From assembly GCA_051531975.1 (NCBI GenBank), contig JAOPTT010000001.1, forward strand, positions 1 to 64,000: a DNA stretch of 64,000 bases. Direction: 5' to 3'. How positions within the stretch are numbered: the stretch's first letter is position 1; each line of letters begins with the position of its first letter. Both the position numbers and the translations under genes were made by a program. Shown here piece after piece: positions 44,840 to 60,626 of the stretch. The notes under the pieces are model-generated. The model was given only the letters and a program-made list of their open reading frames with translations, searched no databases and had not been told where the DNA came from. Source of the DNA: Spirochaetaceae bacterium. Lineage in GTDB: Bacteria; Spirochaetota; Spirochaetia; DSM-2461.

Positions 44840-44993
44840 TACCGCCTCTTTATATGAATTATTTCCTTTAATAAGGAATAGCACATGATTAATATTTTTC
44901 TTTGGTCAAAGAGGTTCGAACTTCTTCAGCAGAGATATGCGTATAAATCTGTCAGAGCGGTATGTCTTCGTAGGTGATTGTAAATATCCTTTT

Positions 44994-45055
44994 CTATTAA
45001 AGTTAGTTTATACTAATTCCGTGGCCCCTGGTGACAGCTTCGCTTCCACTACCCC
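44994..45055 (-). repeat. Right terminal inverted repeat of the Tn3-family element
   Basis: ...CCGTGGCCCCTGGTGACAGCTTCGCTTCCACTACCCC. Confidence 0.93.
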
Positions 45056-45230
45056 TATTAACAATTATAGGAATAAAAAAAATTATTACATATATTTACA
45101 CATTATTTATTAAAAAATAAATAAACTTTGGGAAAAATTTAAATACATAAAAAATGGTCTAGTTCTAACTTCTTATTGTAGGTATTCTGTCTAGTGCTTA
45201 ACGTTTGTGTAGGTAAAAATGATATTTATT

Positions 45231-46571
45231 TTATGAATACTTTTTATTTTCAATCACTTCTAGAAAATCATTAATTGTTTCAAACCTATTTATATTCTGT
45301 ACTAGAATGGTATAAAAAACCCATACAACATGTAAAAACTCATCTAAAACCTCCATTTGGTCAATTGGTTGCTTTCCATGGTGTACATATCTTGAACGTA
45401 ATCCATATATCTTTTTTATAAGTTTAACAATTTTTACTCTTTCATCAGCTGTATTACCAACAATAAATGCTATTCGTTCAGATATATTTTGAGTTAATGG
45501 TTCTGTTTCATTTTTTATAATTAGACTTTCAAGACTAACAAGAACATATAGTAATTTATCATATATTTCTTTTTGTATTGTGTGTTTAGAGTAAATCTGT
45601 AGTGAATCGTATAACTTAGATTGATAATTATTTTTGTTTTCTATTCTTATTAAATCACTAAAGGATGATAAAGATGAATTTGTAAGATAATGTATAGTTT
45701 CATTTGCAATTGGGTCAACATTTACATTATTAACAATAGAAGTTTTATTGGAAACTAATTCTTGTGTATTTTTATCAATAATCAAAGTATGATTTACTTC
45801 TGATAATTTCCAAGAATTCAAATCTATATATGACTTTACAGTAATTTTTAAATTACTCATTGAAAATATTCTTAGAACCATAAATGCATCATTAATTTTA
45901 TCATATGCCATTTCCATAGCCTTATTTTTTTCTGCTTTGACTGAATATGCTGCAGCAATATAACCTTGATGATCTTTTTTAAATTTTTCAATATGATTTA
46001 AAATATTTTCATCTGATTTATCACTTTCTGAAAACCATTTGTCGATAATTGTTGGTGACATATTATATATTTGAATATTCCCTAATTTAAAGTTCGATTC
46101 AGTAAACATATTATGAATAGGTACAATAATCGTATACTCTTTTATTTCTTTTTCAAATAAATTATTCAGATATTCTAAATATGTTTCATTTGAGTTTGTT
46201 CTAATAGATATTTCTATCCAATCTTTATATATTTCAGTTAAATATTTAATGCTTAACAATTTATATTCAATCTCATTATTTAATTTTAATAAAATATTAA
46301 TTAAATCATTAAATGAATCTCTTAGTAATTGATATTTACAATTATCAAAAATAAAATAAAATCCAATTTCATTACCTAAATAATCTGAATATGAGATTTT
46401 TAATGATTGAATATCTTTAGCTGTTATTACCCCAGATACATAACAATCATTAGTTTTGGGTTTGGGTTTGGGTTTGGGATTGTTATCAATTGGTTCCATT
46501 TTAATTACTTCTATTTTTTGAGATATGTGTATTAATTTAGTATTATAATTATCAAGTGCTTTTGGGTGCAT
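45231..46571 (-). CDS. HEPN (ApeA-like) domain protein, putative RNase
   Basis: C-terminal LVSLESL...ISERIAF...IYGLRSRYVHHG contains the HEPN RxxxxH motif. Confidence 0.75.
   Translation of the reverse strand: MHPKALDNYNTKLIHISQKIEVIKMEPIDNNPKPKPKPKTNDCYVSGVITAKDIQSLKISYSDYLGNEIGFYFIFDNCKYQLLRDSFNDLINILLKLNNEIEYKLLSIKYLTEIYKDWIEISIRTNSNETYLEYLNNLFEKEIKEYTIIVPIHNMFTESNFKLGNIQIYNMSPTIIDKWFSESDKSDENILNHIEKFKKDHQGYIAAAYSVKAEKNKAMEMAYDKINDAFMVLRIFSMSNLKITVKSYIDLNSWKLSEVNHTLIIDKNTQELVSNKTSIVNNVNVDPIANETIHYLTNSSLSSFSDLIRIENKNNYQSKLYDSLQIYSKHTIQKEIYDKLLYVLVSLESLIIKNETEPLTQNISERIAFIVGNTADERVKIVKLIKKIYGLRSRYVHHGKQPIDQMEVLDEFLHVVWVFYTILVQNINRFETINDFLEVIENKKYS
46455..46478 (+). repeat. (TTTGGG)4 hexamer repeat encoding PKPKPKPK
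   Basis: Four exact copies, in frame in the HEPN gene. Confidence 0.9.
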
Positions 46572-46658
46572 GGTTTCTCCAATATATGTTTATTTAAATT
46601 GCTACGAGAAGGAATTTAAATTATTTGTTTTTATATAATCTAAAAAACCTTTAAACAA

Positions 46659-48341
46659 CTATGTTTTAGTATATTCATGGTATAACTTTTTTTGAATTTC
46701 TTTATCTCCATAAAAAAATCTTTCTGCTGCTAGTTCATGTTTTTTCTCTTCAGAATAATTTAAAATATTTTGCTCTAATAATTTTCTAGCACTCCATGAT
46801 CCTAAATTCGCGATAGTGTTAATTTCATTATTAAATTTCTTTAAAGCATACTCTTCCCATTCTGGAAATTTTTTAATAATAACTAATGCATAATGACCTA
46901 AATAATCATGACTAACACTACAGTGTTCTGTAGGAAACATTTCACCAAGATTTAGCTCTTTTCTCAAGGAATTATAGTTTTTTAGTTCTGTAAGAATCTT
47001 TAGTTCAAATGACCATAATGATTTTAATTTTTCAATTGCTAAATGTACTTTAAAAGATTTATCATCTTGATAGTTACGTGTAAACTTTGTTACTGCTTCT
47101 AAAGTTAATAGGTCAATTTTTCTTAGAATATTTCTATTAGAAGAAGATAATATTTGTTCCCATGAAAACTCATCATACATGTATCTAGTTGATAAATGTT
47201 CAATTTTCCCTAAATTTAGTTTTTGTGAATTAGCAATACATAAGACTTTATTTATTCTTCTATATGTATCAGAAGCTAAAAGGATAACTTTCTTATTAGG
47301 ATCATTATCAGAAAAATTTAATGTTAATTCAATTAAATACTTAATAAATACTTTTAGATCATTTTTGTCTGTCTTTGGTAAATATTGGAATTTAATATTA
47401 TTTTGATCTGCTTTCATATAATATAATAGTGAATGACAAATATAATTAGCATTATAATCTCTTTCTAATCTTGGAAACATTTTATATGGTATGAAAAATA
47501 ATTCTTTATTTATTGATAGTTCAATTAATCTATTATTCATGCTATCTAGAGAAGGGTTTGTTGGAGTTATGAAATATAGAATATCTATAATATCATCAAG
47601 AGTTTCATTGCTTTTATCATTCCAATTATCTTGTTTTATTAAACCTTTTTGTTGGAAATTTTTTAATACAAGTGACCTTTTTGATAATAATTTATCTTTA
47701 ATCAAATCAGAAAATTCATTAACTCTTTGCTGGTTGAATTCCTTATCAAATGCTTTATCAAGAACTTTCAAAACTCTTCTTTTGTAGTAAAACCATGATT
47801 GTAATGGAGATAATAAGATTTGTAACATTTCAAATGATTCTAATAGATCAGAGATTTGTATATGTAGAACAGGTTCAGTAAGGCTTTCTTCCCTATCAAA
47901 GATTTCTAGTTTTTGACCATCGCAAAGCACAATTAAAACAGAATTAATATTAGGGTGTACAGAATATTCTACTGCTTGACTAAGATCTGCATACCTAAAG
48001 TTTTTAGGTTTAATTGGTTTTTTAGCCTCAATCAACCAAAAATTTTCCTCCCATAAGAGTATTGAATAATCAATATACTTGTTCTTTTTTCCTAAAAACT
48101 GGATATTCTTTTCTCTTTTTACTGATGAGTATGTACCATGTTTATACCCTAAATGTTTTATTATTGGATCAATTATTTCTGCTCTTACATCAGCTTCTGA
48201 AAACCCTTCGACATTAATAGTTTGAATAAATTTAATTTCTTCTATTTGTGATTCACTCAATGGCTCAGGTTTTTTATATGTAAGACTAAATTGTATTAAT
48301 TCCTTTAAGGTTCTTATCTCTTTCATTTCATAATTTTCCAT
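46659..48341 (-). CDS. Protein with an HsdR-N-like PD-(D/E)xK nuclease domain and a long uncharacterised C-terminus
   Basis: SEADVRAEIIDPIIKHLGY...IDY...WLIEAKK...QAVEYS...VLCDG. Confidence 0.72.
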   Translation of the reverse strand: MENYEMKEIRTLKELIQFSLTYKKPEPLSESQIEEIKFIQTINVEGFSEADVRAEIIDPIIKHLGYKHGTYSSVKREKNIQFLGKKNKYIDYSILLWEENFWLIEAKKPIKPKNFRYADLSQAVEYSVHPNINSVLIVLCDGQKLEIFDREESLTEPVLHIQISDLLESFEMLQILLSPLQSWFYYKRRVLKVLDKAFDKEFNQQRVNEFSDLIKDKLLSKRSLVLKNFQQKGLIKQDNWNDKSNETLDDIIDILYFITPTNPSLDSMNNRLIELSINKELFFIPYKMFPRLERDYNANYICHSLLYYMKADQNNIKFQYLPKTDKNDLKVFIKYLIELTLNFSDNDPNKKVILLASDTYRRINKVLCIANSQKLNLGKIEHLSTRYMYDEFSWEQILSSSNRNILRKIDLLTLEAVTKFTRNYQDDKSFKVHLAIEKLKSLWSFELKILTELKNYNSLRKELNLGEMFPTEHCSVSHDYLGHYALVIIKKFPEWEEYALKKFNNEINTIANLGSWSARKLLEQNILNYSEEKKHELAAERFFYGDKEIQKKLYHEYTKT

Positions 48342-48353
48342 CCCAATGTTTAG

Positions 48354-50135
48354 TTATATTTTAATTTTTTTATGTTTTATATTAAAATATTGGAGTATTT
48401 CATCTCCAAACTGATTATATTCATCTTTGTTCATATAAGAAGGATAGTTATAATTTTCATCTATAAAATCGACAAATTTAATTGTGCTATCATTTATAAT
48501 AGAATCGCAATATTTTTGTAAACAATCACTTAGACTTATATTACCTGTATAAATCTTGGAAAAGTCACTTATATTACATATTATTGGAGCATGATATTTT
48601 ATATCTTTAACAGATATTTCATTAACATATTCTTTATTATATTTATGTATTAACAAATTTAAAAAATTAATAGAAAGAGATGATTCTTGGGTTATCACTA
48701 AATTGTATATATTTTTAATTCCACTTAAAGTACTTGAATGATCTTCCCATAAGTCTTCTGAGATACCTTTAGAGATTTTTCCATTTAGATGTAATAATTG
48801 TAATGTTCCTTTTCTTTCATTTGGAGGTAATTTGTAATAGTCTTCTTCTCCAGGATAATATAATCCATATTTAGACAAAATTTTCATTAAAATTTCTTCA
48901 TTAAAATAAGATGATAATAATCTTATTGGTAAATACCCTGCCTTTATTTCAATAAAAATAAGGCTATCATCTATTTTTATAATTAAATCAGTTATTTCTT
49001 GGCCATCAGTATATTTATTATTTAACAAATTTAGTTTCAATTTATTCTTGAAAAAATCTTCTACTGATTTCTCGAAGCAATGCCCTAAAGCATTTGATCT
49101 TAGGTCTACATTTCTTTTTTGTTCTTTTAATTCTTTATTATTTAGAAATTTATCCTCTAAATCTAGAAAAGTATTTCTAAAACATCGTTCAATAAGAATT
49201 CCTACATCTAAAATTCTATATTTGTCTTTTGATAATTTTTCTATAGGATGACACCATACAGAATAGTTATTATTTAATTGTAATTTATCTATATTTGAGA
49301 CAGTTAAATTTAAATCAAACGATTCAAAAAATGTCCTTAAATGAGTAATAAGTGTAGTACTATCATCTTTGAATTCATTAAAATCAGAGTTTAAATCGAT
49401 AATATTACTATAATCATTGGCTTTATATCTAATAATTAAACATAAATTTAAGATATAACAAGTTTTTATTTTATCTAGAATATGTATTCCAGTTTCTGAA
49501 AATAAGAGCTCATTTGCTTGCTTTCCTTCTGCTGTTTCCAAAATATCAACCATCAAATAATAATTTCTTTTAATTTCTGACAAAATTATTTTTGACTTTT
49601 CTAAATGAAAATTCGATCTAAAAAGATCCGTGAGAAGTTTTAATATATTTTCAATTGATAAATCACCATTATATTCACCATCTGTTGAAACATCCTCAAA
49701 ACAATTAATCTTAGATAACTCCTTATGTAATTGACTTATATCTATAAGTTTTTTATCAGTTTTAGATTCTACAAAACTGTTTTTCAGAATAAATAATAAG
49801 TTTTGTCTAGTTACTATAGTTGCTAATCCGTATTCTCTTTTATATTTAGAATATAGAGAACCAAATGATTTACGGCTAGTTTCATCTAGTAAATTATAAT
49901 AAAGTTGAGGATCACTTAACTGAGAGTAATAATTTAATTTAGCTAAGTATTCAATGATTGTATCACGTAATAAAGAGGGATTATAATTCTCTACAATTTC
50001 TAATAATGGTTGTTCGATATTGGATGGTGGTGATATTCCTTCATATAAATCTGTATATGCTAGCCTAGTTATTAACATTGTACTCATACAGTATCTCCTT
50101 TTAAAGATGTAACTATTAAATATAAACCTTAGCAT
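48354..50135 (-). CDS. Hypothetical protein with a C-terminal PD-(D/E)xK (NERD-like) domain; start may be the internal MSTML after a GGAG RBS
   Basis: GHCFEKSV...EITDLII...LIFIEIKAG nuclease-like motif. Confidence 0.6.
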   Translation of the reverse strand: MLRFIFNSYIFKRRYCMSTMLITRLAYTDLYEGISPPSNIEQPLLEIVENYNPSLLRDTIIEYLAKLNYYSQLSDPQLYYNLLDETSRKSFGSLYSKYKREYGLATIVTRQNLLFILKNSFVESKTDKKLIDISQLHKELSKINCFEDVSTDGEYNGDLSIENILKLLTDLFRSNFHLEKSKIILSEIKRNYYLMVDILETAEGKQANELLFSETGIHILDKIKTCYILNLCLIIRYKANDYSNIIDLNSDFNEFKDDSTTLITHLRTFFESFDLNLTVSNIDKLQLNNNYSVWCHPIEKLSKDKYRILDVGILIERCFRNTFLDLEDKFLNNKELKEQKRNVDLRSNALGHCFEKSVEDFFKNKLKLNLLNNKYTDGQEITDLIIKIDDSLIFIEIKAGYLPIRLLSSYFNEEILMKILSKYGLYYPGEEDYYKLPPNERKGTLQLLHLNGKISKGISEDLWEDHSSTLSGIKNIYNLVITQESSLSINFLNLLIHKYNKEYVNEISVKDIKYHAPIICNISDFSKIYTGNISLSDCLQKYCDSIINDSTIKFVDFIDENYNYPSYMNKDEYNQFGDEILQYFNIKHKKIKI

Positions 50136-50184
50136 ATAAATAATATTTAATTTGTATAGATTAGACTTCTATTTCGTTTTGCTA

Positions 50185-52674
50185 CTAGTAAATCTTTTTA
50201 GTTACTAATTGTAAATTAAATTCTTTTTTCTTTTTAGTTTGATATAATTCAATCGGAGGTAAAAATACAGACCTAGTTTTATTTTTACTTTGAATTATTG
50301 GAAGTAATATTTTGATGTATTCATCTGGAAACTTGTAACCAAGCGTAATTTTTGTAATATAAGCCCCAATTAATTTATTTTTTTCATTTGGTTTCAGTGG
50401 ATAATTATAATTGATTTTAGGATTACTAGGCTTGTATGCAAAGAGCCTATATTCATTTTCATATTTCCATGAATTATGTTTAACAAAAATTCCAGCATCA
50501 AATAGACCATATTCTTCAATTATTTTATTCTTATCAATATGGGGTGACACATATTTTACATTATTCCAACCAATATTATTTGGTAAAGATGTAATTTTAT
50601 ATGATATGCAAATACCATTGTGACTGTCTCCATAATGAGACCACATAAGAGTATTATTTTGTTCTGTTGTTAATGCGACAATACGAATATCTTTAGATTT
50701 TAATTTCCATAAATCATAATCTCCTTCATCAACCATTGTAGGTAAAGGTATATCCATTGGATCATTTAATTGATTTATTTCAGAAAAATATAGAAAATCA
50801 TTAGATATTGAATCAAGGATATTATTGTCAAACGCTTTAAATTTATGTAGTTCCCTATTTAATGTTGTAAAGCCAGATCCAATTCTATAAAAATCTTTAT
50901 ATTGAGTTTTTGTTATTGATTCAGATAGTTCTTCATATGATTGACTAATAGAATTTTCTAATGCCTCTAGTTCAACTTTTTCAATACCACGAGCTTTTAG
51001 TTTTTCTTTTTCAATATTTAATTTATTTTGTTCTCTAGTTAATCGACCTGTATCTAAAAATCCAAGCTTTAAGCTTTTTTCAATATATTCTTCTTCTAAT
51101 TTGTGGTTTTCTAAAATTCCATAACACACTCCTATATTATTTAAAGTTATAGGATTATTTGAATCATTTACTAATAATTTATCATATGTTTTAACAGCCT
51201 CTTCATACATATCTAGATCCATGAATGAACTTGCTAATCTATTCAAAAAATTAGTATCTTCTATATTATGATTTTTTGATATTTCAATAACCTTCTTATT
51301 TAATTCTGTACTTAATTTGTTTTCAATTTTATTTAATCTTTTATGTATTTCATCGTAACATTCTGACCTATAATCATTACCATCTAATAATTCTTTTGCT
51401 AATTTCTTAGCTTTAGATGTAGTGCTAAAGTTAATAGCCTCTTCAGAATATATGTTGTTGATAAAGTCTTTGGATATAACTATATCCTCAAGGTTTATTT
51501 CATTTATTTTTTTAATCTTTGAATTTATTTTATAAATAGATGCTTCAAGGTTTGCATTTAAATAAAAATATAAGCTATCTTTTATAATAGTATGATTTTT
51601 TTGAATATCTTCTTCTTTAGCAATATAGTAAGCAAAGCGACTATTCTTAATTGCATTATGATAATCATTCTGTTTCATATTTATTTTAGATTTAATAATA
51701 TATGCATATATAACTGAAATATTATCATATACATAGAAGCCAATATTTGTACTTTCTAGGATTTCATTTACAATATCAAGTGCTTTTATATTTTGATTAA
51801 GATTTTCAAGACAATCTGCAATTTGGTATCTATATTGACTAATTATTTTCTTTTGATGAATTCCTGTTTCTATACAGTTTTTTGCTAATTCATAATTATT
51901 ATTTCTATAATAATATTCATATTGATCACTATGAGAGAGGGTCTTTAAATATATATGAGCTTTTTCAATGTTGTTAATTTTTTCATAATATTTTAAATAT
52001 AACCTATTATAATTATAGCTAACATTTTTAGTTTCAATATGTTCTATATCTAGTATTATTTTCTTAGATATATCTAGGTTTTCTAAATAAATAGATATTT
52101 CAAGCAACTGCAATTTATGTCTTACTGTTGCAACATTGTCATTTATTAATTTTTGGTATTCTAGAGATAAAAATTCTAAATCAGCATTAGAATAATGTCT
52201 ATCTTCGATTTTATACAAAAATGGATTATCCATAAGATATTTAATTTTTCTTTCTAATAAATTATTATCTAAGTTTATAGCATCATTAATATACGTAAGA
52301 CCTTGAATTATATTACTTTCGATTTTGATTGTATAAACCCCTAAATAGAAGAGAGTAACTGAAGTTTTAGGGTTTAATTCTAATGAAGTGATTAAAAATT
52401 CTTTAATATCATTATGTGTATAATATGAATTTATACTATTTTGCAGCTGTTCACATGTTAGGGCTAATTGATAATAAACTAAAGATTCATTATTGCTATT
52501 CTCAAGTAAATTATTCAGAGATTCTAGTTTTTTTGATGATTGACCTGTAACATCAAATAAGAAATACCAAATATATTCTTTGTCTTTTAATATTAGGTTT
52601 TTATCATTTAGATTGAGTTTTACTTTATCATAATTCTTATCACGAAAATATTTATAAATATCTTTTTTTGCCAA
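50185..52674 (-). CDS. TPR-repeat protein fused to C-terminal DUF2971
   Basis: TPR-like helices (LNNIGVCYG); LYFS...NDPMD, LMWSHYGDSHNGICISY, K...WKYENEYR, ITLG. Confidence 0.8.
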   Translation of the reverse strand: MAKKDIYKYFRDKNYDKVKLNLNDKNLILKDKEYIWYFLFDVTGQSSKKLESLNNLLENSNNESLVYYQLALTCEQLQNSINSYYTHNDIKEFLITSLELNPKTSVTLFYLGVYTIKIESNIIQGLTYINDAINLDNNLLERKIKYLMDNPFLYKIEDRHYSNADLEFLSLEYQKLINDNVATVRHKLQLLEISIYLENLDISKKIILDIEHIETKNVSYNYNRLYLKYYEKINNIEKAHIYLKTLSHSDQYEYYYRNNNYELAKNCIETGIHQKKIISQYRYQIADCLENLNQNIKALDIVNEILESTNIGFYVYDNISVIYAYIIKSKINMKQNDYHNAIKNSRFAYYIAKEEDIQKNHTIIKDSLYFYLNANLEASIYKINSKIKKINEINLEDIVISKDFINNIYSEEAINFSTTSKAKKLAKELLDGNDYRSECYDEIHKRLNKIENKLSTELNKKVIEISKNHNIEDTNFLNRLASSFMDLDMYEEAVKTYDKLLVNDSNNPITLNNIGVCYGILENHKLEEEYIEKSLKLGFLDTGRLTREQNKLNIEKEKLKARGIEKVELEALENSISQSYEELSESITKTQYKDFYRIGSGFTTLNRELHKFKAFDNNILDSISNDFLYFSEINQLNDPMDIPLPTMVDEGDYDLWKLKSKDIRIVALTTEQNNTLMWSHYGDSHNGICISYKITSLPNNIGWNNVKYVSPHIDKNKIIEEYGLFDAGIFVKHNSWKYENEYRLFAYKPSNPKINYNYPLKPNEKNKLIGAYITKITLGYKFPDEYIKILLPIIQSKNKTRSVFLPPIELYQTKKKKEFNLQLVTKKIY

Positions 52675-52777
52675 AATAAGCTCCTAATGATATAATATTA
52701 GTAGATAATGTTTAATTAATAAATATTATGTTTAAAATACCTATAAAGCATTAAATAATCCTTAAATCCTAAGTTCA

Positions 52778-52881
52778 ATAGAGTTATATAGAATTACGAA
52801 TTTTCCATATAACTCTATAAAGTACCCAAACCATAATCTAATTAAAAATTCTATGTTATCCAAAAACATTATAACTCTATA
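52778..52881. repeat. ATAACTCTAT motif cluster: a perfect 12-bp inverted pair (52778-52789 / 52807-52818) plus a direct copy at 52871
   Basis: ATAGAGTTATAT-N17-ATATAACTCTAT, then TTATAACTCTATA. Confidence 0.6.
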
Positions 52882-52968
52882 CAAACCAGTCTCGCCCATA
52901 ACCCCCAATCTGTATACATAACTAAAGTTATATTTTTGGCTATAAACACCCTCTTTTTACGAGTATTA

Positions 52969-53559
52969 CTAAGATTTAAGGAATTTATACAAAGTAGTCC
53001 GACTAATACCAACAGCACTAGCAACAACACTCTTTTGTTCCCCTAATGATAACAAAGCATTTATTTGTAATGCCTTTTGCTTTGTTATCTTTGTGGATCC
53101 TTTTGGCCTGCCAAGAATGACACCTCTCTCTTTAGCTCGTTGAATACCTAGCTTTGTTCTTTCACCTAACAGTTTAACTTCTCTTTTAGCTAAAGAGAGC
53201 TGCAGATCGAATATAAACTCTTCTTCTGCAGACATACCTTTCTTGATTGTTAGATTAGACATAACTACATAGATCTCAAGATCTTCTCTTACATCTGTTA
53301 TATGTCTTAGCAGCTTTAAACCATCCCTGGTGTTTCTACCTATCCTGGATATCTCTGTTACAACTATCTTTTTAACTTCAGGATTTATTATATGATCCCA
53401 GAGTTTCCGGTTCTCTAACTTGGTTTTAGATGCTGATACTTGCTCTAGAATAATGTCATTGAATTTCATATTCATCATCTCTTCGTATCGCTTAAAAAAA
53501 GTGCTATATTTATCTTTGTCCTGGTCTACAGAACTTACTCTACTGTATGCAATTATCAT
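52969..53559 (-). CDS. Small serine recombinase (resolvase/invertase family)
   Basis: MIIAYSRVSSVDQ catalytic Ser, EISRIGRN, ERTKLG...GRPKG, C-terminal HTH GISRTTLYKFL. Confidence 0.95.
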   Translation of the reverse strand: MIIAYSRVSSVDQDKDKYSTFFKRYEEMMNMKFNDIILEQVSASKTKLENRKLWDHIINPEVKKIVVTEISRIGRNTRDGLKLLRHITDVREDLEIYVVMSNLTIKKGMSAEEEFIFDLQLSLAKREVKLLGERTKLGIQRAKERGVILGRPKGSTKITKQKALQINALLSLGEQKSVVASAVGISRTTLYKFLKS

Positions 53560-53704
53560 ATGTTTTTAATTGTATAGCTGTTTTATTTACATGTATATTA
53601 CTATTTTGTTTAATTTAATCTCATGTCAGCTTATTTTTCTTACATGTTTCGGTGGTTTGACTCTGTTTGTTGTGTGTTCAGAAAAACGAACGATTATTTG
53701 GACA
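53560..53704 (-). promoter_or_regulatory. res-like site, copy A (putative crossover site 53675-53704 plus accessory sites)
   Basis: Minus strand TGTCCAAATAATCG-TT-CGTTTTTCTGAACA, an imperfect 14+2+14 palindrome ending 116 nt upstream of the resolvase ATG. Confidence 0.72.
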
Positions 53705-53763
53705 CTATTTATAAATAAAAAAGGCTATGTTCAGATAGCCTATAAATTAACTGATATTTTTTC

Positions 53764-53799
53764 ATAAGGATAAGGTCACCTGACCTACAAAGTAGGTCC
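53764..53799 (-). repeat. Conserved 36-bp hairpin element, copy A (3' end of module A)
   Basis: GGACCTACTTTGTAGGTCAGGTGACCTTATCCTTAT, 26/36 identical to 57430-57465. Confidence 0.5.
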
Positions 53800-53839
53800 A
53801 CAGTTATATTATGGTTTCTCTAGTTTTTAATATTGATAT

Positions 53840-54229
53840 TTATTTAAAATATTTCTTTCTTCTTAAGTTGTTTAAAAACAGTAATATAATAAAAACAATG
53901 AAATACTGAATATAGTTAATAATATAACCTTGACTTAACTCTTGCATTTTAAATTGATTAACTAACTTTGGAATCAATGCTAATAAAAGGTAAACAATGA
54001 TTGGGAGAATTCCGAATAGCTTCTTTTTAGAAACAGCAATTGCAGCTATCAGCAATAAGAGACCTAAACTAAATGATCTTACTTTAAAGAATAATGGCAT
54101 TGATTCAAAATAACTTGTAATTGGTTCAATTCCTAAATGAAACATAATAATCGTTGCTAAATTAGCAACAATATAAATCGAACTCATTATAAATAATAAC
54201 ACTATTGCTAGGCATGCTTTATTCCTCAT
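53840..54229 (-). CDS. Small 4-TM membrane protein, candidate immunity protein
   Basis: 129 aa, four hydrophobic helices, GGAG RBS; the immunity role is inferred from context. Confidence 0.65.
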   Translation of the reverse strand: MRNKACLAIVLLFIMSSIYIVANLATIIMFHLGIEPITSYFESMPLFFKVRSFSLGLLLLIAAIAVSKKKLFGILPIIVYLLLALIPKLVNQFKMQELSQGYIINYIQYFIVFIILLFLNNLRRKKYFK

Positions 54230-54449
54230 ATTTAATTTATTCTCCTATAAGACCAAATCCTTTAAACTTAGATTGATTTTCATCTTCAATTTTTGATTAG
54301 TACTTCTCACTTATTGGTGTTAGTTTTTCAATAGCAACTTCTTGAGATTCTATATTTTCATCATAATATTTATTACTACAATCATTCCCAGTTGCCGAAT
54401 CCAATCCGACTATTATTATTAATTGAACTTCATATGAAGTTTTTGTTTT

Positions 54450-54632
54450 TTATTTTTCTTTGGATTTATTTTTTTTAATATCAATAATAGATGTAATTAA
54501 TAAGCCAACTCCCAAAACAGCAAAAAAAATAGGTAAAGTATAATCTTTTAATTTAAAAATACTTATAGAAATAGCCGTTAATAATGCAACCTCTAATAAT
54601 ATTAGTAATATAATTCTATAAGCTTTCTTCAT
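54450..54632 (-). CDS. Small 2-TM protein, candidate immunity protein
   Basis: 60 aa; ATG overlaps the stop of an upstream headless frame (TAATG). Confidence 0.6.
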   Translation of the reverse strand: MKKAYRIILLILLEVALLTAISISIFKLKDYTLPIFFAVLGVGLLITSIIDIKKNKSKEK

Positions 54633-54746
54633 TATTTATTATTGAACCTCCTTTTCAATGATGATACTGCTTGTGTTAGGTATAATTTGTCCTTCAAGAA
54701 TCGTAATATTGGATCTACGGCACCAGCACCTGATAGATTCTTATTT

Positions 54747-55055
54747 TTAATCTGCAATTGCTGATAAACCCCGATTCATTTCTAAAGCTTTATTACATAA
54801 ATCAATTAAATTTGTAGTAATTAAATGCAAATTATTTTCTTTATAACTTTTTCCTAAAATCTGGATTTCATCTTTGAAAGTTTGTACTTCAGATGGTGTT
54901 ATATTCACATCTTCATAATATTCACTTAACTGAAGAAATATATTTAACTTAATTTCTTTTGCTTTTTGAATTAAATCATAGTGCTCATTGGAATTCATTC
55001 CAACTTGAACTTCTGGTTTTCCTTCGTTATCTAAAATAGCAATATCAAATGACAT
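54747..55055 (-). CDS. Small soluble acidic protein, candidate immunity protein
   Basis: 102 aa directly downstream of the Rhs-motif mini-ORF. Confidence 0.65.
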   Translation of the reverse strand: MSFDIAILDNEGKPEVQVGMNSNEHYDLIQKAKEIKLNIFLQLSEYYEDVNITPSEVQTFKDEIQILGKSYKENNLHLITTNLIDLCNKALEMNRGLSAIAD

Positions 55056-55094
55056 TTATTTTCTCACTTAGACTATATCTGCTGCCAATCATCA

Positions 55095-55184
55095 CTAAAT
55101 TTCCTCAATAAGTCCAGTAGGATCAATAAAATTAATAGGATTGTTTTCTATATATTTATCAAAGACGCAACCATACTTAATCAT
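55095..55184 (-). CDS. Unannotated 29-aa Rhs core-end mini-ORF (truncated Rhs tip), copy A
   Basis: MIKYGCVFDKYIENNPINFIDPTGLIEEI* contains the Y..NNP....DPxGL Rhs junction motif. Confidence 0.7.
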   Translation of the reverse strand: MIKYGCVFDKYIENNPINFIDPTGLIEEI

Positions 55185-55282
55185 TTAATATCTTAACCTT
55201 TTATTATTATCTGAGCTACCAATTTAAATTTATCAAGATTTAAATTCCGAGATGAGGTAGACAGAGTGATAATTATCGGAAG
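55185..55282 (-). repeat. Conserved ~98-nt leader of the Rhs mini-ORF, copy A
   Basis: About 88/99 identical by my alignment to 56759-56857 in inverted orientation. Confidence 0.9.
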
Positions 55283-55425
55283 TTAAGCTTCTCAATTGAA
55301 ATAAGACAATAGGATTGAGGGATATCCATTATTTAAATTAGAACATGTAGGGAAGAAAAGGATTCTATGGAATATTACCTTTGAAGGTAATGTGTTAGCT
55401 GATTCCAGAATATTAGGCATAGTTT

Positions 55426-56172
55426 TTATTCACTAATGTATTTTTCATTAATAATTACTCCTTGTCTAATTCCTATACTAATATTGTTTCCATTATCAAT
55501 TACATGACCAAAACTTTTTGTAGAGCCTATAAATTTACCTATGAATATGGATCTATTAGATTTAATAATTTCAGACCAAATTCCCGTAGTTACCATAAAG
55601 TCAGTATTATCTTCATTTAAATTAATAGATTCTAAAAAATCTTTTTTAAAGTTGATAAAATTTTTATTGTCAAAATTTGCAAATGGGTATATTTTATTGC
55701 CATTTAAATTGAGAAATAGCATTAGTAAATGTTTTAATGATTCTTCTCCTATTTTCTGAATAACTTTAGAAGAGTTATCATCTAATTGTAGTATCTCTAT
55801 ATCATTATTATTATACATAAATGATATAGAAATATTCTCTATAAGCGACAATGAAGATCTTGATTGTATTGGAATGTTAAGTAAATCATTATGAATATTG
55901 TTTAATTCATGAGGGATGTCATTTTCTTTTATATTTCTAGAAATATTTTCCATTGTTAAAGTATATTCTTTTTCATCATTTTCAATGATATTAACATTCC
56001 AACTGACTTTATGTTGTTCAAATGGATGTGTAAAAGGGGATATATTTAAACTAATGTAATACGCATCTTTTATAGATAATATATATGAGTTTTCGTGTGA
56101 ATCTCTTGTATTAAGTGTAGTACAAGATGAAATTACTAATATAAATATGGTTATAATATAACTTTTTCTCAT
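55426..56172 (-). CDS. Hypothetical lipoprotein
   Basis: MRKSYIITIFILVISSC lipobox; 248 aa. Confidence 0.7.
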   Translation of the reverse strand: MRKSYIITIFILVISSCTTLNTRDSHENSYILSIKDAYYISLNISPFTHPFEQHKVSWNVNIIENDEKEYTLTMENISRNIKENDIPHELNNIHNDLLNIPIQSRSSLSLIENISISFMYNNNDIEILQLDDNSSKVIQKIGEESLKHLLMLFLNLNGNKIYPFANFDNKNFINFKKDFLESINLNEDNTDFMVTTGIWSEIIKSNRSIFIGKFIGSTKSFGHVIDNGNNISIGIRQGVIINEKYISE

Positions 56173-56758
56173 TTACTTTTATTCCTTCATTAACCTACCC
56201 TGAGAAATAATTTAATATCAAAAATTCTGATGTGTTAGAACCTTAATAGGGTTGATCATGTTTATGTATTTTTTCTCACAAATCAATAAAAATTATTATA
56301 GCCCGTATAGTCTGCTCTGAATATACAAATAATTGCTTCTATTTTTTATTATATTCAAAATCGCATAATATAATGTAGCATCTATATATTGCGTTGAAGG
56401 CAATAAAGCTCCTTAAGATGAGTTTAAGTTTAACGTTGAAAGACTTGGACTTTAAGGAATTCAGTTTAAAGAAGTGTGTTCTAACGAATCTTAATCTTTA
56501 GGTTACTATAAAACAAAAAGTTTTAGCCTTACCCAGTAGAACAGAAGACTGGTTCTTTTGTGAAATTTTACCGAACTATTGACTTCGTTTATTGTCTTAA
56601 TTGCTAATCGTTTGGGTTATTTATACATAGGGCTGTTATACCTTCAACTAAACTAAGTTCACAACGAATAAACCGTATTCTGATCTTTCCCAAAGGGCAT
56701 TCCCTCGCTATGTGGGGTAATAGCTATACAACATACACATGCAGCAGTGAGACAGTTG

Positions 56759-56857
56759 CTTCCGATAATTATCATTCTGTCTACCTCTGATCGGAATTTA
56801 AACCTTGATAAATCTAATTAAGTAGCTCAGATAATAATTAAAGGTTAAGATATTAGA
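56759..56857 (+). repeat. Conserved ~99-nt leader of the Rhs mini-ORF, copy B
   Basis: CTTCCGATAATTATC...GTAGCTCAGATAATAATTAAAGGTTAAGATATTAGA. Confidence 0.9.
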
Positions 56858-56917
56858 ATGCTTAAATATGGTTGCATCTTGGATAAGTACATAGAAAATA
56901 ATCCGATTAACTATTAG
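56858..56917 (+). pseudogene. Rhs core-end mini-ORF, copy B (stops before DPxG)
   Basis: MLKYGCILDKYIENNPINY*. Confidence 0.65.
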
Positions 56918-56952
56918 ATTCATTTTAAGTTTTAGGCGCAGTACGCTAGGAG

Positions 56953-57387
56953 GTGAAAATGATACAACGACTGAATGTGAGTAATTTACTAGCTTTATTG
57001 ATGTTACTTTACTGTCTATTTATACCAACATTTAAATTAAATGCTTTGAACTTTGAGAAGGAAGCAATAGATAAGATTCATGTTGTATTTAGTAATGATT
57101 ATGAGAATGGTGAATCATATGAGTTTGATATAGAAGGATATGCCAAAGATGGATTTCTTTATATTCTAACGAAATCTAAGGAAACAGATTATTTACCATT
57201 AATGGAGTTAGATGAAGGTAGTTATATAATTAGTCTAATTTCTGAAGGTGAAATTATAGAAGTTTTTAGTTTAAAATTAATTGATACTTTTCATAGGAAA
57301 AGTAATAATATCTTTTATGAGAATCTTAATCTTACAAGCGTTTTGAGAAAGCATGTAATCAAAGTTTTGACAAATAAAAAACAATAA
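56953..57387 (+). CDS. Secreted or periplasmic hypothetical protein, candidate immunity protein
   Basis: AGGAG RBS, N-terminal hydrophobic signal, 144 aa. Confidence 0.65.
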   Translation: MKMIQRLNVSNLLALLMLLYCLFIPTFKLNALNFEKEAIDKIHVVFSNDYENGESYEFDIEGYAKDGFLYILTKSKETDYLPLMELDEGSYIISLISEGEIIEVFSLKLIDTFHRKSNNIFYENLNLTSVLRKHVIKVLTNKKQ

Positions 57388-57429
57388 TGATTTAATATAA
57401 CAATTTTACTATAAGAGTCCGGTGGAATA

Positions 57430-57465
57430 GAACCTACTCAATAGGTCAGTTAGCCTTGCCTTTAT
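57430..57465 (+). repeat. Conserved 36-bp hairpin element, copy B (3' end of module B)
   Basis: GAACCTACTCAATAGGTCAGTTAGCCTTGCCTTTAT. Confidence 0.5.
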
Positions 57466-57483
57466 AGCTTTGAATTAAGTTTA

Positions 57484-58020
57484 CTATCTAAATTGCAGTC
57501 TATATGGTTTATTTAAATCCTTAATATAATATTTGATTGATGTAATCCTATGATTTTTTATTATAAAACTTTTTGTTGTTTTTCTTTCTTTAATTGAATA
57601 CGACATACCTTCATTATTAAGTTTGTTTAGGATAAAATTCCAACTAGAATCTGTTGAAATATTAAATTCATCAATAAGAAAATCGAATTCAAAATCATCA
57701 TTTGTGTTATAGAATTGAAACATAACTGAACCTATTTTTTTAGTACCTTCTGGAACATAAAAATTTAATCTATAATCATCAAAGTAATAACCAATAGATT
57801 TTGGAATAGATTCAATTTCGTATCCAATATCAATTGATTTACAAACCTCTTCGATGTCAGAACCTAATAATATAGTCTTCTCTTGATAAGTAAAGTTCTC
57901 ACCTTCAACTTTAAAGTCATACTTTTCATTACAACTTACTGTTGAGATAAATACTATAGTAATTAATAATCCACCTAAAACTCTTTTTAATTCCACATAT
58001 AACTCCTTTATTTGGGACAA
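57484..58020 (-). CDS. Hypothetical lipoprotein (likely GTG start near 57996)
   Basis: AAGGAG RBS, then VELKRVLGGLLITIVFISTVSC lipobox. Confidence 0.65.
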   Translation of the reverse strand: MSQIKELYVELKRVLGGLLITIVFISTVSCNEKYDFKVEGENFTYQEKTILLGSDIEEVCKSIDIGYEIESIPKSIGYYFDDYRLNFYVPEGTKKIGSVMFQFYNTNDDFEFDFLIDEFNISTDSSWNFILNKLNNEGMSYSIKERKTTKSFIIKNHRITSIKYYIKDLNKPYRLQFR

Positions 58021-58084
58021 TCACTATTGTCATATTCTTTTAAACTTCTTTGGAAGATTCCTGTAGTAAAAATCTTTTATATTA

Positions 58085-59116
58085 TTAGTCTAGTATTCCA
58101 AATTCCTCATTATCCTCAGTAAGACTAATAGTCTCAGTAGACTTAAAATCATTATAGTACTTTTTATCAAATTCAATTTCAGGATTATTGCCTTCTTTAA
58201 TCCAGGTAATTTCACTCTCAAAAATATTATTTATATATTTATTTGCTTTTACTAGTTCTTTATTTAACTCTTTATTTATTCTTTTTAGTTTATCATCATT
58301 ATTACCATTCACTTTTACACCTGTAACTTTTTGCATAGATAATGTTAGAGCTGCAATTTCTTTATAGTATTCTTTTATTTTACTTTTGTTACTATAATTA
58401 CTTGCCATTAAATAACTTCTAGCAGAAAGTAAGAAAGCTCCTTTTTCATATAACAAATCACCTAAAGCAGATAGTAAAATTGGAGAATTATAAAACCCAA
58501 ATTTTAACATTCCAGAGATTCCTATAATTGCCTTATTTCGCTCCTTTGAGTCATATTTAATACCATTTGAAACATAAATATCTTTTAAATATGAATTAAA
58601 ACTATGTTCTTTAAAATAATCATAAGTTATAACATTTGTATAATTAGTTTTTACTGAGAGAATATATTCGATAAGAAATATTTGGAATTGTTCTCTCCCA
58701 AAATGCGCATCAGGATTAATCTTTATTGATTCTTTTAGATACTTTAAACCTTCTTTTAATTGACCAGAATGTATATATATAGTCCCTAAGTTAGCTAAGG
58801 TTTCATATCTATTATTATAATCTATTAGTTGTTTATTTTGTAAATTTAGAGCTAATTGACTCTTCCCAACTTTATCATATGCAATGGCTAAATCATCTAT
58901 ATCATGCTGTGTATAAATCCCTGAACCAATTTTCTTTTTCCTATCATTAATTCTCCATTCATAAAATTCTGTAGAATGTCTTAAGAATTGTCCTGTTATA
59001 AGTTCTTGTAAACCTGGGAATGTTTGCTTTTCCATTTTAATTGTATCGTAATCCCAAGCACATGAGAAAATATTCATGGCTTTGAATAACAGTGTAATAA
59101 TCATAATTTTTTTCAT
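58085..59116 (-). CDS. Exported TPR-containing protein
   Basis: Signal peptide then CAWDYDT; TPR motifs DDLAIAYDKVG, YETLANLGTIYIH, INPDAHFGRE. Confidence 0.75.
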   Translation of the reverse strand: MKKIMIITLLFKAMNIFSCAWDYDTIKMEKQTFPGLQELITGQFLRHSTEFYEWRINDRKKKIGSGIYTQHDIDDLAIAYDKVGKSQLALNLQNKQLIDYNNRYETLANLGTIYIHSGQLKEGLKYLKESIKINPDAHFGREQFQIFLIEYILSVKTNYTNVITYDYFKEHSFNSYLKDIYVSNGIKYDSKERNKAIIGISGMLKFGFYNSPILLSALGDLLYEKGAFLLSARSYLMASNYSNKSKIKEYYKEIAALTLSMQKVTGVKVNGNNDDKLKRINKELNKELVKANKYINNIFESEITWIKEGNNPEIEFDKKYYNDFKSTETISLTEDNEEFGILD

Positions 59117-59136
59117 ATTTTGATTATATATTGTAA

Positions 59137-59281
59137 TGTAAAATTAATCGTTCGTTTTTCTGAACACCGAACTCAATAAGTTCGGGAGACAATATATGTA
59201 ATAAAAAACAATTACTATAAGATTAAACTAAACAAAAATCTAATATACATGTAAATAAAACAGTTATACAATTAAAAACAT
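59137..59281 (+). promoter_or_regulatory. res-like site, copy B (inverted relative to copy A)
   Basis: TGTAAAATTAATCG-TT-CGTTTTTCTGAACA; same 30-bp spacer length and same 116-nt distance to the ATG as copy A. Confidence 0.72.
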
Positions 59282-59380
59282 ATGATAATTGCATACAGTA
59301 GAGTAAGTTCTGTGGATAAAATACTAAAGATATATTTACATGGTAAATTTTATTTTGATTTTTATATGTATATTACTTAA
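59282..59380 (+). pseudogene. Truncated second copy of the serine resolvase
   Basis: MIIAYSRVSSVD is identical to the first 12 residues of 52969-53559, then unrelated sequence to TAA. Confidence 0.88.
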
Positions 59381-59516
59381 ACGAGACGCCTTCTTAGATA
59401 TTACTTAAAAAACTATATTATTTATTTTGTATATAACTAAGTATATTATCCAAAAACAGTTCTAAATGTGTGTATAAATACCGTCCATATTAATAGAATA
59501 TTATTAAGAGGTTATT

Positions 59517-59773
59517 ATGGCTACTAAAACTACATGAATAGAATTCAGGACAGATGTTAATAATAAAAAAATAATAGAAAAGCTGCAATACTAACCGGCC
59601 AAACATTATCATCATATATTTTGAATAAAACACTTGATTCTGCTAAAAAAGATATTGAAGAAATTGAATCTCTTCATTTAGCTGATAAAGATAGAGATGT
59701 CTTTTATTCTTTAATAACTAATCCTCCTGCTCAAAATGAAAATCTTAAAAATTTATTTAATTTAGAACTGTAA
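59517..59773 (+). pseudogene. DUF1778 (TacA/AtaR-type) antitoxin pseudogene
   Basis: MATKTT*IEFRTD..K.IIE/AAILTGQTLSSYIL...LHLADKDRDVFYSLITNPPAQNENLK; in-frame TGA plus a frameshift. Confidence 0.8.
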
Positions 59774-59775
59774 TA

Positions 59776-59978
59776 ATGCCATTAAATATAGAAATTGTAC
59801 CTGTATCTAAAAAGCTTAGAGCTATTAGGATTTCTTCTGATGTTGCTATAAAATTTATTATTGTAGATGCTTGAATGAAAAATCTAAAGATTTTTATCTA
59901 AGATATGACTTTATAGCATTAGAAGATAATCCATTAATATTTGTTATTTCTATAGATACAATTAAAAATGCAATATAA
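59776..59978 (+). pseudogene. GNAT acetyltransferase toxin pseudogene (internal deletion plus frameshift)
   Basis: MPLNIEIVPVSKK joined to ...VAIKFIIVDA/NEKSKDFYLRYDF..LEDNPL, the C-terminus of TacT/AtaT-type toxins. Confidence 0.72.
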
Positions 59979-60180
59979 TTACCCTCCTAATCAGTTACTA
60001 AATAGAAATCAATAACAGTAAGATCTACATTATTATCAAATTACATATTATACCTAAAGAATAATTATCTTAAATACAAATATTCACTGTCCAAATATAA
60101 CTAATATATAACTTTATTTAATTATAATATTAGTTTTTTTATATTAAAATATACTTATATTCTTATAAAAAGGGAGATAA

Positions 60181-60459
60181 ATGAGTTATATAATAATTAA
60201 TAATAAAAATGCTACCTCAGACAACACCCCACCGTCACAACATAAAAGTTGGCTAGAGTTTTGGGAAAGTAAAAAAGGTTGTAGTGCAGATAAATGTGAA
60301 GTTGAGAACTGTAGTGCAAATGCAGAATTAGGGGGACATGTTATAACGTATGGTAAAGGTGCCAAAGAATATATTTTACCCATGTGTTCTTCATGCCATA
60401 ATAAACCTAGTGGAGAGAAATTTAAAGCATGGGAAAGTTATTTAATATCTGTAAATTAA
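60181..60459 (+). CDS. Small Cys/His-rich putative zinc-binding protein
   Basis: GGGAG RBS; SWLEFWE...CEVENC...GGHV...ILPMCSSCHN. Confidence 0.75.
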   Translation: MSYIIINNKNATSDNTPPSQHKSWLEFWESKKGCSADKCEVENCSANAELGGHVITYGKGAKEYILPMCSSCHNKPSGEKFKAWESYLISVN

Positions 60460-60626
60460 TATTAATGAAAATAATAATTAAAGCTAGAGATTATATTTAT
60501 TAACAGAATAACTATTACTTCTCTTCGTATATTTTTCTTTCATCAGAAAAATATAAATTGCTTGTTATCATAAATGATCTCCCTTAAATTTAATAAAGTA
60601 ACTACATATTTAAAAAGAGGATTATC

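Follow-up and report, generated by a model that had tools for sequence, protein, structure and literature searches.

Rhs-tip and immunity-like modules bordered by dif-like sites and bracketed by putative serine recombinase sites in a plasmid-like island of a spirochaete

Results

Three related loci with two kinds of recombination site

The first 64,000 nt of contig C1 of a Spirochaetaceae genome (GCA_051531975.1, JAOPTT010000001.1; C1:1-64000, the whole of which is called the window below) contain, at 52969-59380, a small serine recombinase gene (rec) and an array of short genes arranged in modules. We read this region, with a probability of roughly 60%, as the partly decayed accessory part of a plasmid-like island, in which sites for two different site-specific recombination systems separate the modules, dif-like sites (L) for the Xer recombinases and 30-bp dyads (R) for rec. 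The inverted repeats, leaders, mini-ORFs (short open reading frames, ORFs) and the R and L features go beyond chance; Xer acting on L, rec acting on R, a plasmid origin of the island and present activity are each suggested by the sequence. The source genome (G000; 5.46 Mb, 31% G+C, 29 contigs, completeness 98.5%) was assembled from a marine metagenome and belongs to the same genus as Thiospirochaeta perfilievii; C-numbers denote its contigs, and the other G-numbers genomes of its family. Whole-genome BLAST and motif scans revealed two further loci besides that of the window, on C10 and on C3, the latter an island without a recombinase gene. The three loci sit on contigs of 244, 301 and 297 kb, and each has an inverted pair of R sites ~5 kb apart with copies of L between them. 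The same design thus recurs around this clade of recombinases, as an earlier note on this DNA had anticipated.

Module borders share the arms of the chromosomal dif site

The leaders of two opposed modules in the window form an inverted repeat (55186-55282/56759-56855, 97 nt at 90% identity, extending to 152 nt at 87.5%). When this leader was searched by BLAST against 38 genomes of the family, its first 26 nt alone were matched, once per genome, by sequences reading CTTCCGATAATATATATTCTGTCTAC or near variants. The pattern CTTCYGATAATRTATATTCTGTCTAC occurs in exactly one copy in 29 of the 38 genomes (21 of the 23 of high quality) and in two copies in none, and a reversed control pattern gave 0 matches. 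The copy in the source genome lies at C6:356278, on the plateau and maximum (350-380 kb) of the cumulative GC skew of a 728-kb contig, and agrees at 22 of 28 positions (hand count) with the Bacillus subtilis dif in the form printed in PMC3025954. Its single occurrence per genome, its position on the skew and its likeness to the B. subtilis site together indicate that the motif is the chromosomal dif site.

L, the first 26 nt of the leader repeat, has the arms of this dif and a 6-bp spacer of its own, TTATCA versus TATATA in dif. The arms, CTTCCGATAA and TTCTGTCTAC, are shared by eight L sites, all of which carry the spacer TTATCA and lie inside the three loci that also hold every R site. In the window, L site C1a (55257-55282, minus strand) has the arms CTTCCGATAA and CTCTGTCTAC, and L site C1b (56759-56784, plus strand) is identical in both arms to dif at C6:356278. 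Two copies match dif at 20 of 20 arm positions and three more differ by 1-2 changes; over the eight copies, 21 mismatches were counted at 160 arm positions versus none at 48 spacer positions (P about 1e-3, hand estimate).

On the XerD-arm side of L, four copies lead into a homologous leader and tip (z 33-49) and four do not, and no pair of XerC-side flanks is significantly alike, the XerC and XerD arms having been assigned by alignment with the dif sequences printed in PMC3025954. Homology between modules therefore ends at L. Since the cassette ends are L sites with dif arms, the cassettes appear to be bounded by Xer sites and not by serine recombinase sites or Rhs homology. What the earlier note had proposed, an array of Rhs-tip/immunity cassettes bounded by recombination, holds to this extent, with borders that are dif-like XerC/XerD sites in place of the serine recombinase sites or Rhs junction homology it had named.

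Inverse L pairs occur in the window (55257/56759) and on C10 (278407/280446), direct pairs on C3 and on C10 (286140/287213). With XerC-type arms inside, the inverse pair of the window encloses a segment of 1476 bp (55283-56758, the C module), which holds a gene for a 248-aa lipobox protein (55426-56172, minus strand) and an antisense relic of a Rhs core start (56659-56758); the like arrangement on C10 encloses 2013 bp. Such core-start relics (..GRYY..YNP..RFITEDPI, Rhs_assc_core E 7.2e-4) lie antisense to three L sites. We considered L as decayed Rhs core-start coding sequence and rejected this: the reverse complement of L does occupy the core-start position in the relic at L copy C10c, but no L-like sequence (at most 7 mismatches) was present in 12 rhs loci of relatives.

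No tyrosine recombinase gene was found in the three loci. Full-length XerC-like (305.8 bits) and XerD-like (299.1 bits) genes are both on C17; their best scores come from different models, and both stay under the equivalog cut-offs. With dif-like sites at the cassette borders, the likely shuffling enzyme is this housekeeping Xer pair.

Outside the three arrays, a dif-like site at C10:266090-266115 (two arm mismatches, spacer TAGGTA) stands at the head of a series of small accessory genes, ~11 kb to the left of rec on C10, and could be one boundary of a larger island delimited by Xer sites.

Dif-like sites with other spacers occur in part of the family

Dif arms combined with any 6-bp spacer were searched for in the 38 genomes, with a reversed pattern as control. 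Ten genomes have 2-11 dif-like sites each (7 in the source genome, 11 in G005, 6 in G011 and 5 in G007), and the control gave one match overall. The spacers recur within and between genomes; ACCAAT, for example, is found in both G005 and G007. Three of the G005 sites share a 13.4-kb contig with genes for ParA, the replication protein RepA_C and a BrnT toxin, and ParA-RepA is flanked by two of them. In G007, a matching pair of site types is present at two loci; at one it encloses a NUDIX gene, at the other DNA unrelated to the first.

Modules join a leader, an Rhs core end and small genes

Two opposed modules, each built of a leader, an Rhs mini-ORF, small genes and an end element, had been described in the window, and both the repeats and the motif were confirmed. 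The leader, ~70 nt between L and an ATG, is homologous in four copies (z 33-49), including leader A (55185-55256, minus strand) and leader B (56785-56857, plus strand). Mini-ORF A (55095-55184, minus strand; 29 aa, 55184 to 55098) consists of an ATG and the final ~24 codons from an Rhs core (..YIENNPINFIDPTGL), followed by a stop without a toxin domain, and reads MIKYGCVFDKYIENNPINFIDPTGLIEEI. Mini-ORF B (56858-56917, plus strand; 19 aa, 56858 to 56914) is truncated and reads MLKYGCILDKYIENNPINY up to its stop. Both represent the Rhs core end, the motif of which is found in four mini-ORFs or tips of the genome. A structured RNA in the leader was also considered and discarded, compensatory changes being seen at 0 of 24 predicted pairs across the four copies.

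The modules close with end element A (53764-53800, minus strand, core 53780-53797) and end element B (57420-57465, plus strand, core 57432-57449). The core, ACCTACTnnGTAGGTCAG, has a third copy on another contig and no other good copy in 5.46 Mb, and only two of the three contexts are independent. As a stable hairpin the end element was rejected (its predicted stability does not exceed that of shuffled sequence, z -0.4 to -0.8), and a comparison by eye with the Xer site yielded no convincing alignment. A terminator-like hairpin with a T-run follows module A (53722-53741, minus strand).

A whole module is preserved on C10, where a 194-aa ORF opening with the core-end motif comes after L and the leader and is itself followed by a 64-aa ORF. 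Starting at the motif, the 194-aa tip aligns at 43% identity (E 6e-50) with the C-terminus of a YD-repeat Rhs protein from a metagenome. On C3, an Imm-NTF2-2 immunity protein (E 3e-16) is encoded behind the mini-ORF, with a DUF2711 protein nearby. In the window modules, the toxin parts are gone.

The gene directly after mini-ORF A encodes a 102-aa acidic, immunity-like protein (54747-55055, minus strand) of a family with at least 150 representative clusters (50% identity, ~102-104 aa), which has neither a Pfam nor an NCBIfam model and in which H25, Y47, A90 and D102 are invariant; no homologue occurs in the other 37 family genomes. Its AlphaFold2 (AF2) model (mean predicted local distance difference test score, pLDDT, 92.4) was compared with known structures by VIA-align, and the top match is the DNA mimic DMP12 (3w1o, Z 9.7, root-mean-square deviation 2.7 over 94 residues), along with YfbM (1ryl, Z 8.2) and chain 5j4a_D of a CdiA-CT/CdiI complex (Z 7.3; the following match 5.5). 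The protein thus has a predicted immunity-like fold resembling DMP12, YfbM and CdiI, which falls short of proof of immunity.

Behind the tips stand, then, an Imm-NTF2-2 protein on C3 and a DMP12/CdiI-like predicted fold after mini-ORF A, and the 144-aa gene after mini-ORF B and the 64-aa gene on C10 belong to no family. Together with the resemblance of the C10 tip to an Rhs C-terminus, this bears out the earlier suggestion of immunity-like cargo for part of the cargo.

The 144-aa protein (56953-57387, plus strand), which has an N-terminal hydrophobic segment, matched only itself among 5.8 billion proteins and has no homologue in the 37 other family genomes. Also in module A are a 60-aa hydrophobic ORF (54450-54632, minus strand; no Pfam family) and, as last gene, that of a 129-aa membrane protein (53840-54229, minus strand; no Pfam family); the region 53755-54253 is 84% identical at the nucleotide level to C3 107377-107874. 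A perfect 21-nt match in opposite orientation connects window 53827-53847, just 3' of the 129-aa gene, with C3:107903-107923, and the C3 copy directly follows the L site upstream of the homologous gene, another small mosaic junction. Towards the right R site lie a 178-aa lipobox protein (57484-58020, minus strand; no Pfam family) and a 343-aa TPR lipobox protein (58085-59116, minus strand), the start codon of which is 20 nt from R. A protein atlas search with the cargo returned weak leads only.

R sites bracket the arrays and mark past recombination junctions

The 196-aa product of rec (52969-53559, minus strand) matches PF00239 (E 1.1e-16, residues 2-147) and HTH_7 (E 3.3e-6, residues 157-194). 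It begins MIIAYSRVSSVDQ and has the YxRVSxxxQ serine motif and the C-terminal helix-turn-helix (HTH) by which small serine recombinases are recognized. Its best NCBIfam match is an Mpi-family invertase (NF009949, 74.8 bits, under the cut-off of 272), and it stays below every family cut-off. A second intact copy with the same upstream region lies on C10 (90% nucleotide and 94% amino acid identity). The closest database homologue (79% identical) is encoded on pSpe, a 32.8-kb plasmid of T. perfilievii; 32 database homologues were found at E <= 1e-10, eight of them at least 67% identical, and the clade is rare, being present in 2 of 401 sampled genomes of the class (the source genome and T. perfilievii).

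The region upstream of rec (53560-53674) comprises the promoter and possible accessory sites, with two ~21-bp TGTA..TACA dyads, spotted by eye, as candidates for the latter. Homology to it was scored at C1 left (z 52), C1 right (z 115) and C10 (z 42), with a weak match at C3 left (z 10). An inverted copy at 59167-59316 (plus strand) includes the first 12 rec codons (59282-59316, within an ORF at 59282-59380). The arms of this inverted repeat, 53525-53645/59196-59316 (121 nt, 88%) and 53669-53707/59134-59172 (39 nt, 85%), enclose 5426 nt. Beside each copy lies an R site, a 30-bp dyad (13 + 4 + 13) with the sequence TGTTCAGAAAAAC-GAAC-GATTATTTGGACA, at 53675-53704 (plus strand) and, inverted, at 59137-59166 (minus strand). 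An intact recombinase gene and a truncated inverted copy, each with a res-like site and together enclosing 5.4 kb, are therefore present as first described.

The R core ACGAACGATT has six copies in the genome, every one of them in the three related loci on C1, C3 and C10, and a seventh, degenerate copy is on C10. A homologous dyad is conserved ~135 nt upstream of the pSpe recombinase gene, which marks R as a putative crossover site of rec; that plasmid has this single R-like dyad and no dif-like site at up to 4 mismatches. The R pattern had 0 matches in viral contigs.

For the seven R sites, 300 nt on each side were compared, both against shuffles and by alignment. The outer flanks at C1-left, C1-right and C10-a are the rec upstream region (z 42-115), of which C3-left has a weak version (z 10), and the inner flank of C10-a is homologous to that of C3-right (z 11) and not to that of C3-left. 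The flanks form a mosaic (z 10-11), reading 'rec promoter - R - alpha' on C10 versus 'rec promoter - R - beta ... alpha - R - other' on C3. This is the pattern left by inversion or another exchange exactly at R, and it argues for recombination having taken place at R. Both outer R flanks of the window have the same sequence, so that an inversion there would change little, and no gene spans the R sites, so that inversion would swap no coding ends. The role of cassette shuffler that had been proposed for the serine recombinase is not supported, its sites bracketing only the array as a whole.

The alpha element is a conserved non-coding stretch of ~110 nt (GGYTATACSGCAATG...TAAATCAGGATAA...; L001 9440-9560 and L002 13250-13370), which is found on C10 and C3, in each case 110-230 nt inward from one R site, and which the window lacks.

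Toxin-antitoxin (TA) genes lie on the outer side of the rec-distal R at all three loci, as a TacA-like antitoxin fragment in the window (59621-59773, plus strand, PF08681 E 1.5e-6; a TA relic), a Gp49/HTH pair on C3 and HEPN/nucleotidyltransferase genes on C10. Gene-end duplications (78, 119 and 144 nt) flank the islands on C3 and C10. It is the combination of a resolvase, TA modules and, on C3 and C10, these duplications that makes the islands look plasmid-derived.

Surroundings of the islands

Between ~44 and 60 kb the window has a G+C content of 24-27%, compared with 30-33% elsewhere in it; no direct repeats were found around this low-G+C island. A tRNA scan of 38-64 kb found none, and an Rfam scan of 50-62 kb gave a single sub-threshold match of snoRNA type (E 0.28). 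Within the low-G+C island (44000-60500), four large ORFs of 446, 560, 593 and 829 aa lie left of the recombinase gene, and among the candidate defence families of PADLOC the 829-aa protein (TPR and DUF2971) matches PDC-S31 (E 3.8e-27). On C10, neighbours of the recombinase gene match DpdB and PDC-S33 (PADLOC), so that the recombinase gene borders defence-type gene clusters at both loci. At 60181-60459 of the window, a Cys-rich ORF of 92 aa without a Pfam or PADLOC family lies between the TA relic and an ABC substrate-binding gene.

The C3 island, with its R pair and the Gp49/HTH pair, is bounded by a 78-nt direct repeat (C3:106239-106315/112477-112554; L002 8240-8316 and 14478-14555) in which the promoter of an aldose-epimerase-like gene is duplicated together with its first 11 codons, the left copy being frameshifted. 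On C10 (L004 2211-2329/4845-4963 and 5063-5203/6780-6923), duplicated ends of an acylphosphatase gene (119 nt at 96.6%, 144 nt at 89.6%) surround two inserted blocks. One of them is the full Rhs-tip module, and the other has HEPN/nucleotidyltransferase genes, a lipoprotein gene, a 37-nt fragment of rec and a dif-like site at 289716 (spacer TATAAT).

Discussion

How the modules could move

In the mechanism that we propose for the island, the host XerC and XerD would recombine L sites with one another. Recombination between the inverse pair 55257/56759 would invert the 1.5-kb module, and direct or inter-locus pairs would give deletion, insertion or exchange, while the private spacer would keep L from recombining with dif. 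The leader with its own ATG would express tip and immunity pairs as TA-like units, and the full putative toxin/immunity pair of C10 may behave as a TA module. The serine recombinase would act on R; it probably served at first to resolve plasmid multimers, and inverted R pairs would let it invert whole arrays, past recombination at R having flipped or exchanged arrays.

The genome has no Rhs repeats or YD shell (PF05593, PF25023), no PAAR protein and no type VI secretion system (T6SS) sheath (VipB), and no Rhs core domain above threshold. Of the 37 relatives, 30 carry 1-20 Rhs core domains, and all three genomes from the source's own genus are among these 30; the domains often form long orphan arrays, such as one of 20 that spans 65 kb in G036. 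With shell, PAAR and sheath all missing, the cassettes can only be orphan immunity or addiction genes or relics, which would protect or addict and not attack.

Several observations weigh against this reading of the island. The three loci are paralogues and so do not amount to three independent associations. Modules A and B each have L on one side only, L copies C3a, C10c and C10d, with 5-6 arm mismatches, may be dead, and the two direct L pairs depart from the strict C/D alternation of Acinetobacter plasmids. Pfam families were assigned to 0 of 8 small cargo ORFs of the window, and most of the cargo lacks an assignable function. The TTATCA type of L is present in 0 of the 37 other family genomes, so that mobility between hosts is not shown; searches of genome_contigs (one locus) and metagenome_contigs (three) with the L pattern gave PS1-clade or unrelated DNA without flanking homology, which is the chance level. 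Logan contigs of the single run that contains this DNA, probably the source sample, cross both R and both L sites unbroken, with no joints listed and no sign of rearrangement, and the single loose end, at 59166, comes from the paralogous C3 locus. As contigs drop rare variants, their continuity is weak evidence against activity.

Alternative explanations

The strongest competitor is inert debris, in which one plasmid-like element was integrated, triplicated and decayed, L and R are fossils, and nothing is shuffled or expressed today. The truncated copy of rec, the truncated mini-ORFs and the deleted toxins of the window modules would follow naturally, as would the degenerate sites (the three L copies with 5-6 mismatches and the C10 R at 282041 with 4), the lack of variant contigs in the single run and the missing Rhs shell, PAAR and VipB; the gene-end duplications on C3 and C10 (78, 119 and 144 nt) also resemble old integrations. 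Yet two rec copies are intact with 94% protein identity, the spacer is invariant in all eight L sites while the arms hold 21 changes, two L sites retain both arms exactly as in dif, the immunity-like ORFs remain unbroken, and similar extra sites of relatives sit on an apparently live plasmid. We consider wholesale debris unlikely on this balance, if well worth keeping in mind.

The earlier note's own model, in which the serine recombinase and Rhs junction homology acquire and shuffle immunity cassettes, fares much worse. R does bracket all three arrays and its flanks are mosaic, and the ~24 Rhs core-end codons of the mini-ORFs could recombine with rhs genes, which 30 of 37 relatives possess. 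The cassette borders, however, are L sites unlike R (by eye), R is found only at the outer ends of the arrays, the source genome has no main rhs gene, and L-like sequence is missing from the 12 rhs loci of relatives (at most 7 mismatches), which leaves the model little probability.

Marginally less probable again is that L is the promoter or operator of a tip/immunity operon, with a -10 box in its palindrome and a convergent likeness to dif: L does lie ~70 nt upstream of the ATG in four copies, its core GATAATTATC is palindromic and a promoter-like match (GTGAGA-17-TATCAT) occurs at 56747-56775, but promoter-like matches are not enriched (33 found versus 49.7 expected in shuffles) and four of the eight copies (two of the four with a leader) read TATCAC and so lose the final T of the -10 box, two points that weaken the model, while four copies have no downstream gene and 20 of 20 arm positions equal a single-copy dif.

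Relation to known systems

Set beside known systems, the island, with its dif-like borders and serine recombinase sites, is likely to be closer to the tyrosine recombinase logic of the rAID (recombinase-associated acquired interbacterial defence) systems and to Acinetobacter dif modules than to a serine recombinase device. PMC13141974 describes pdif as binding sites of XerC and XerD with a 6-bp spacer between them, with inversely oriented sites flanking modules and inversions and deletions between sites of identical spacer; according to the same paper nearly all cases include TA modules, one kind of module carries a serine recombinase gene, and the system is 'found uniquely in Acinetobacter species' (2026). 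With these modules (PMC13141974, PMC6449649), our loci share the host-dif arms around a 6-bp spacer, identical spacers in partner sites, homology that ends at the sites, inverse pairs (the C module, 1.5 kb in the window and 2.0 kb on C10), TA-type cargo and a nearby serine recombinase gene. They differ in the spirochaete host, contigs of 244-301 kb, several direct or degenerate sites, Rhs-tip/immunity cargo and the serine recombinase sites that bracket the arrays; no Rep_3 (Rep3_N) match was found in the genome, so that the Rep_3/OrfX plasmid hallmark of dif modules is absent, and no rearrangement was observed. What would be new is dif-module-type loci in another phylum, on large contigs, with Rhs/immunity cargo and added serine recombinase sites, probably best filed as a variant of the dif module.

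Orphan Rhs toxin/immunity arrays (PMC3150448, PMC3967940) have the ..NNPxxxxDPxGL core-end motif before a variable tip and an immunity gene directly behind it; our loci share the motif and the variable tip, with a putative immunity gene behind some of the tips. Unlike those arrays, the present loci lie in a genome that lacks any rhs gene of full length, and each tip has its own ATG, a non-coding leader and ~24 core codons, with an Xer-site border and an antisense core-start relic on the other side.

Likeness to Tn3/gamma-delta and Sin resolvases with their res sites and to serine invertases (Hin/Gin/Min, Mpi) consists in the C-terminal HTH, the upstream dyad and the inverted sites ~5 kb apart, and the differences are that rec scores below all family cut-offs, that no gene runs across the sites and that in the window the two outer flanks have the same sequence. 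Ross et al. in 2019 reportedly described rAID/AID orphan-immunity islands of Bacteroidales in which a dedicated tyrosine recombinase gene adjoins the array. Orphan-immunity arrays, repeated boundary elements and the link to tyrosine recombinase chemistry are common to those islands and ours; here the island has no dedicated recombinase, dif mimics would serve the housekeeping Xer enzymes, and a serine recombinase comes with sites of its own. Such Bacteroidales islands are also treated in PMC10470768 and 10.1101/2025.05.03.651265. Among the papers listed by a literature search, none combined a serine recombinase with orphan immunity.

Another comparison is with integrative mobile elements exploiting Xer (IMEX). 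Such elements integrate at the chromosomal dif itself. The modules described here would also use dif-like sites and the host XerCD, but they lie far from dif, on other contigs, and their spacers differ from that of dif. PMC3025954 gives the CTX, TLC and VGJ phages as elements that exploit Xer at dif.

Implications

We tentatively propose, as a possibility short of an even chance, that this family of spirochaetes runs a dif-module system of its own, in which the housekeeping XerC and XerD would move private-spacer modules between plasmids and chromosomes, and that the system was here turned into a platform of acquired interbacterial defence storing self-expressed, TA-like Rhs-tip/immunity cassettes, nested in a block that the plasmid-type rec could invert or exchange. 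For other phyla, host dif arms combined with any 6-bp spacer offer a simple handle with which to search for such modules. If the proposal is true, dif modules would exist in a second, remote lineage (10 of the 38 genomes of this spirochaete family, including a plasmid-like contig), and Xer-driven module exchange would be a general route of gene flow. It would also tie Xer exchange to interbacterial warfare, with immunity genes hoarded without a dedicated recombinase.

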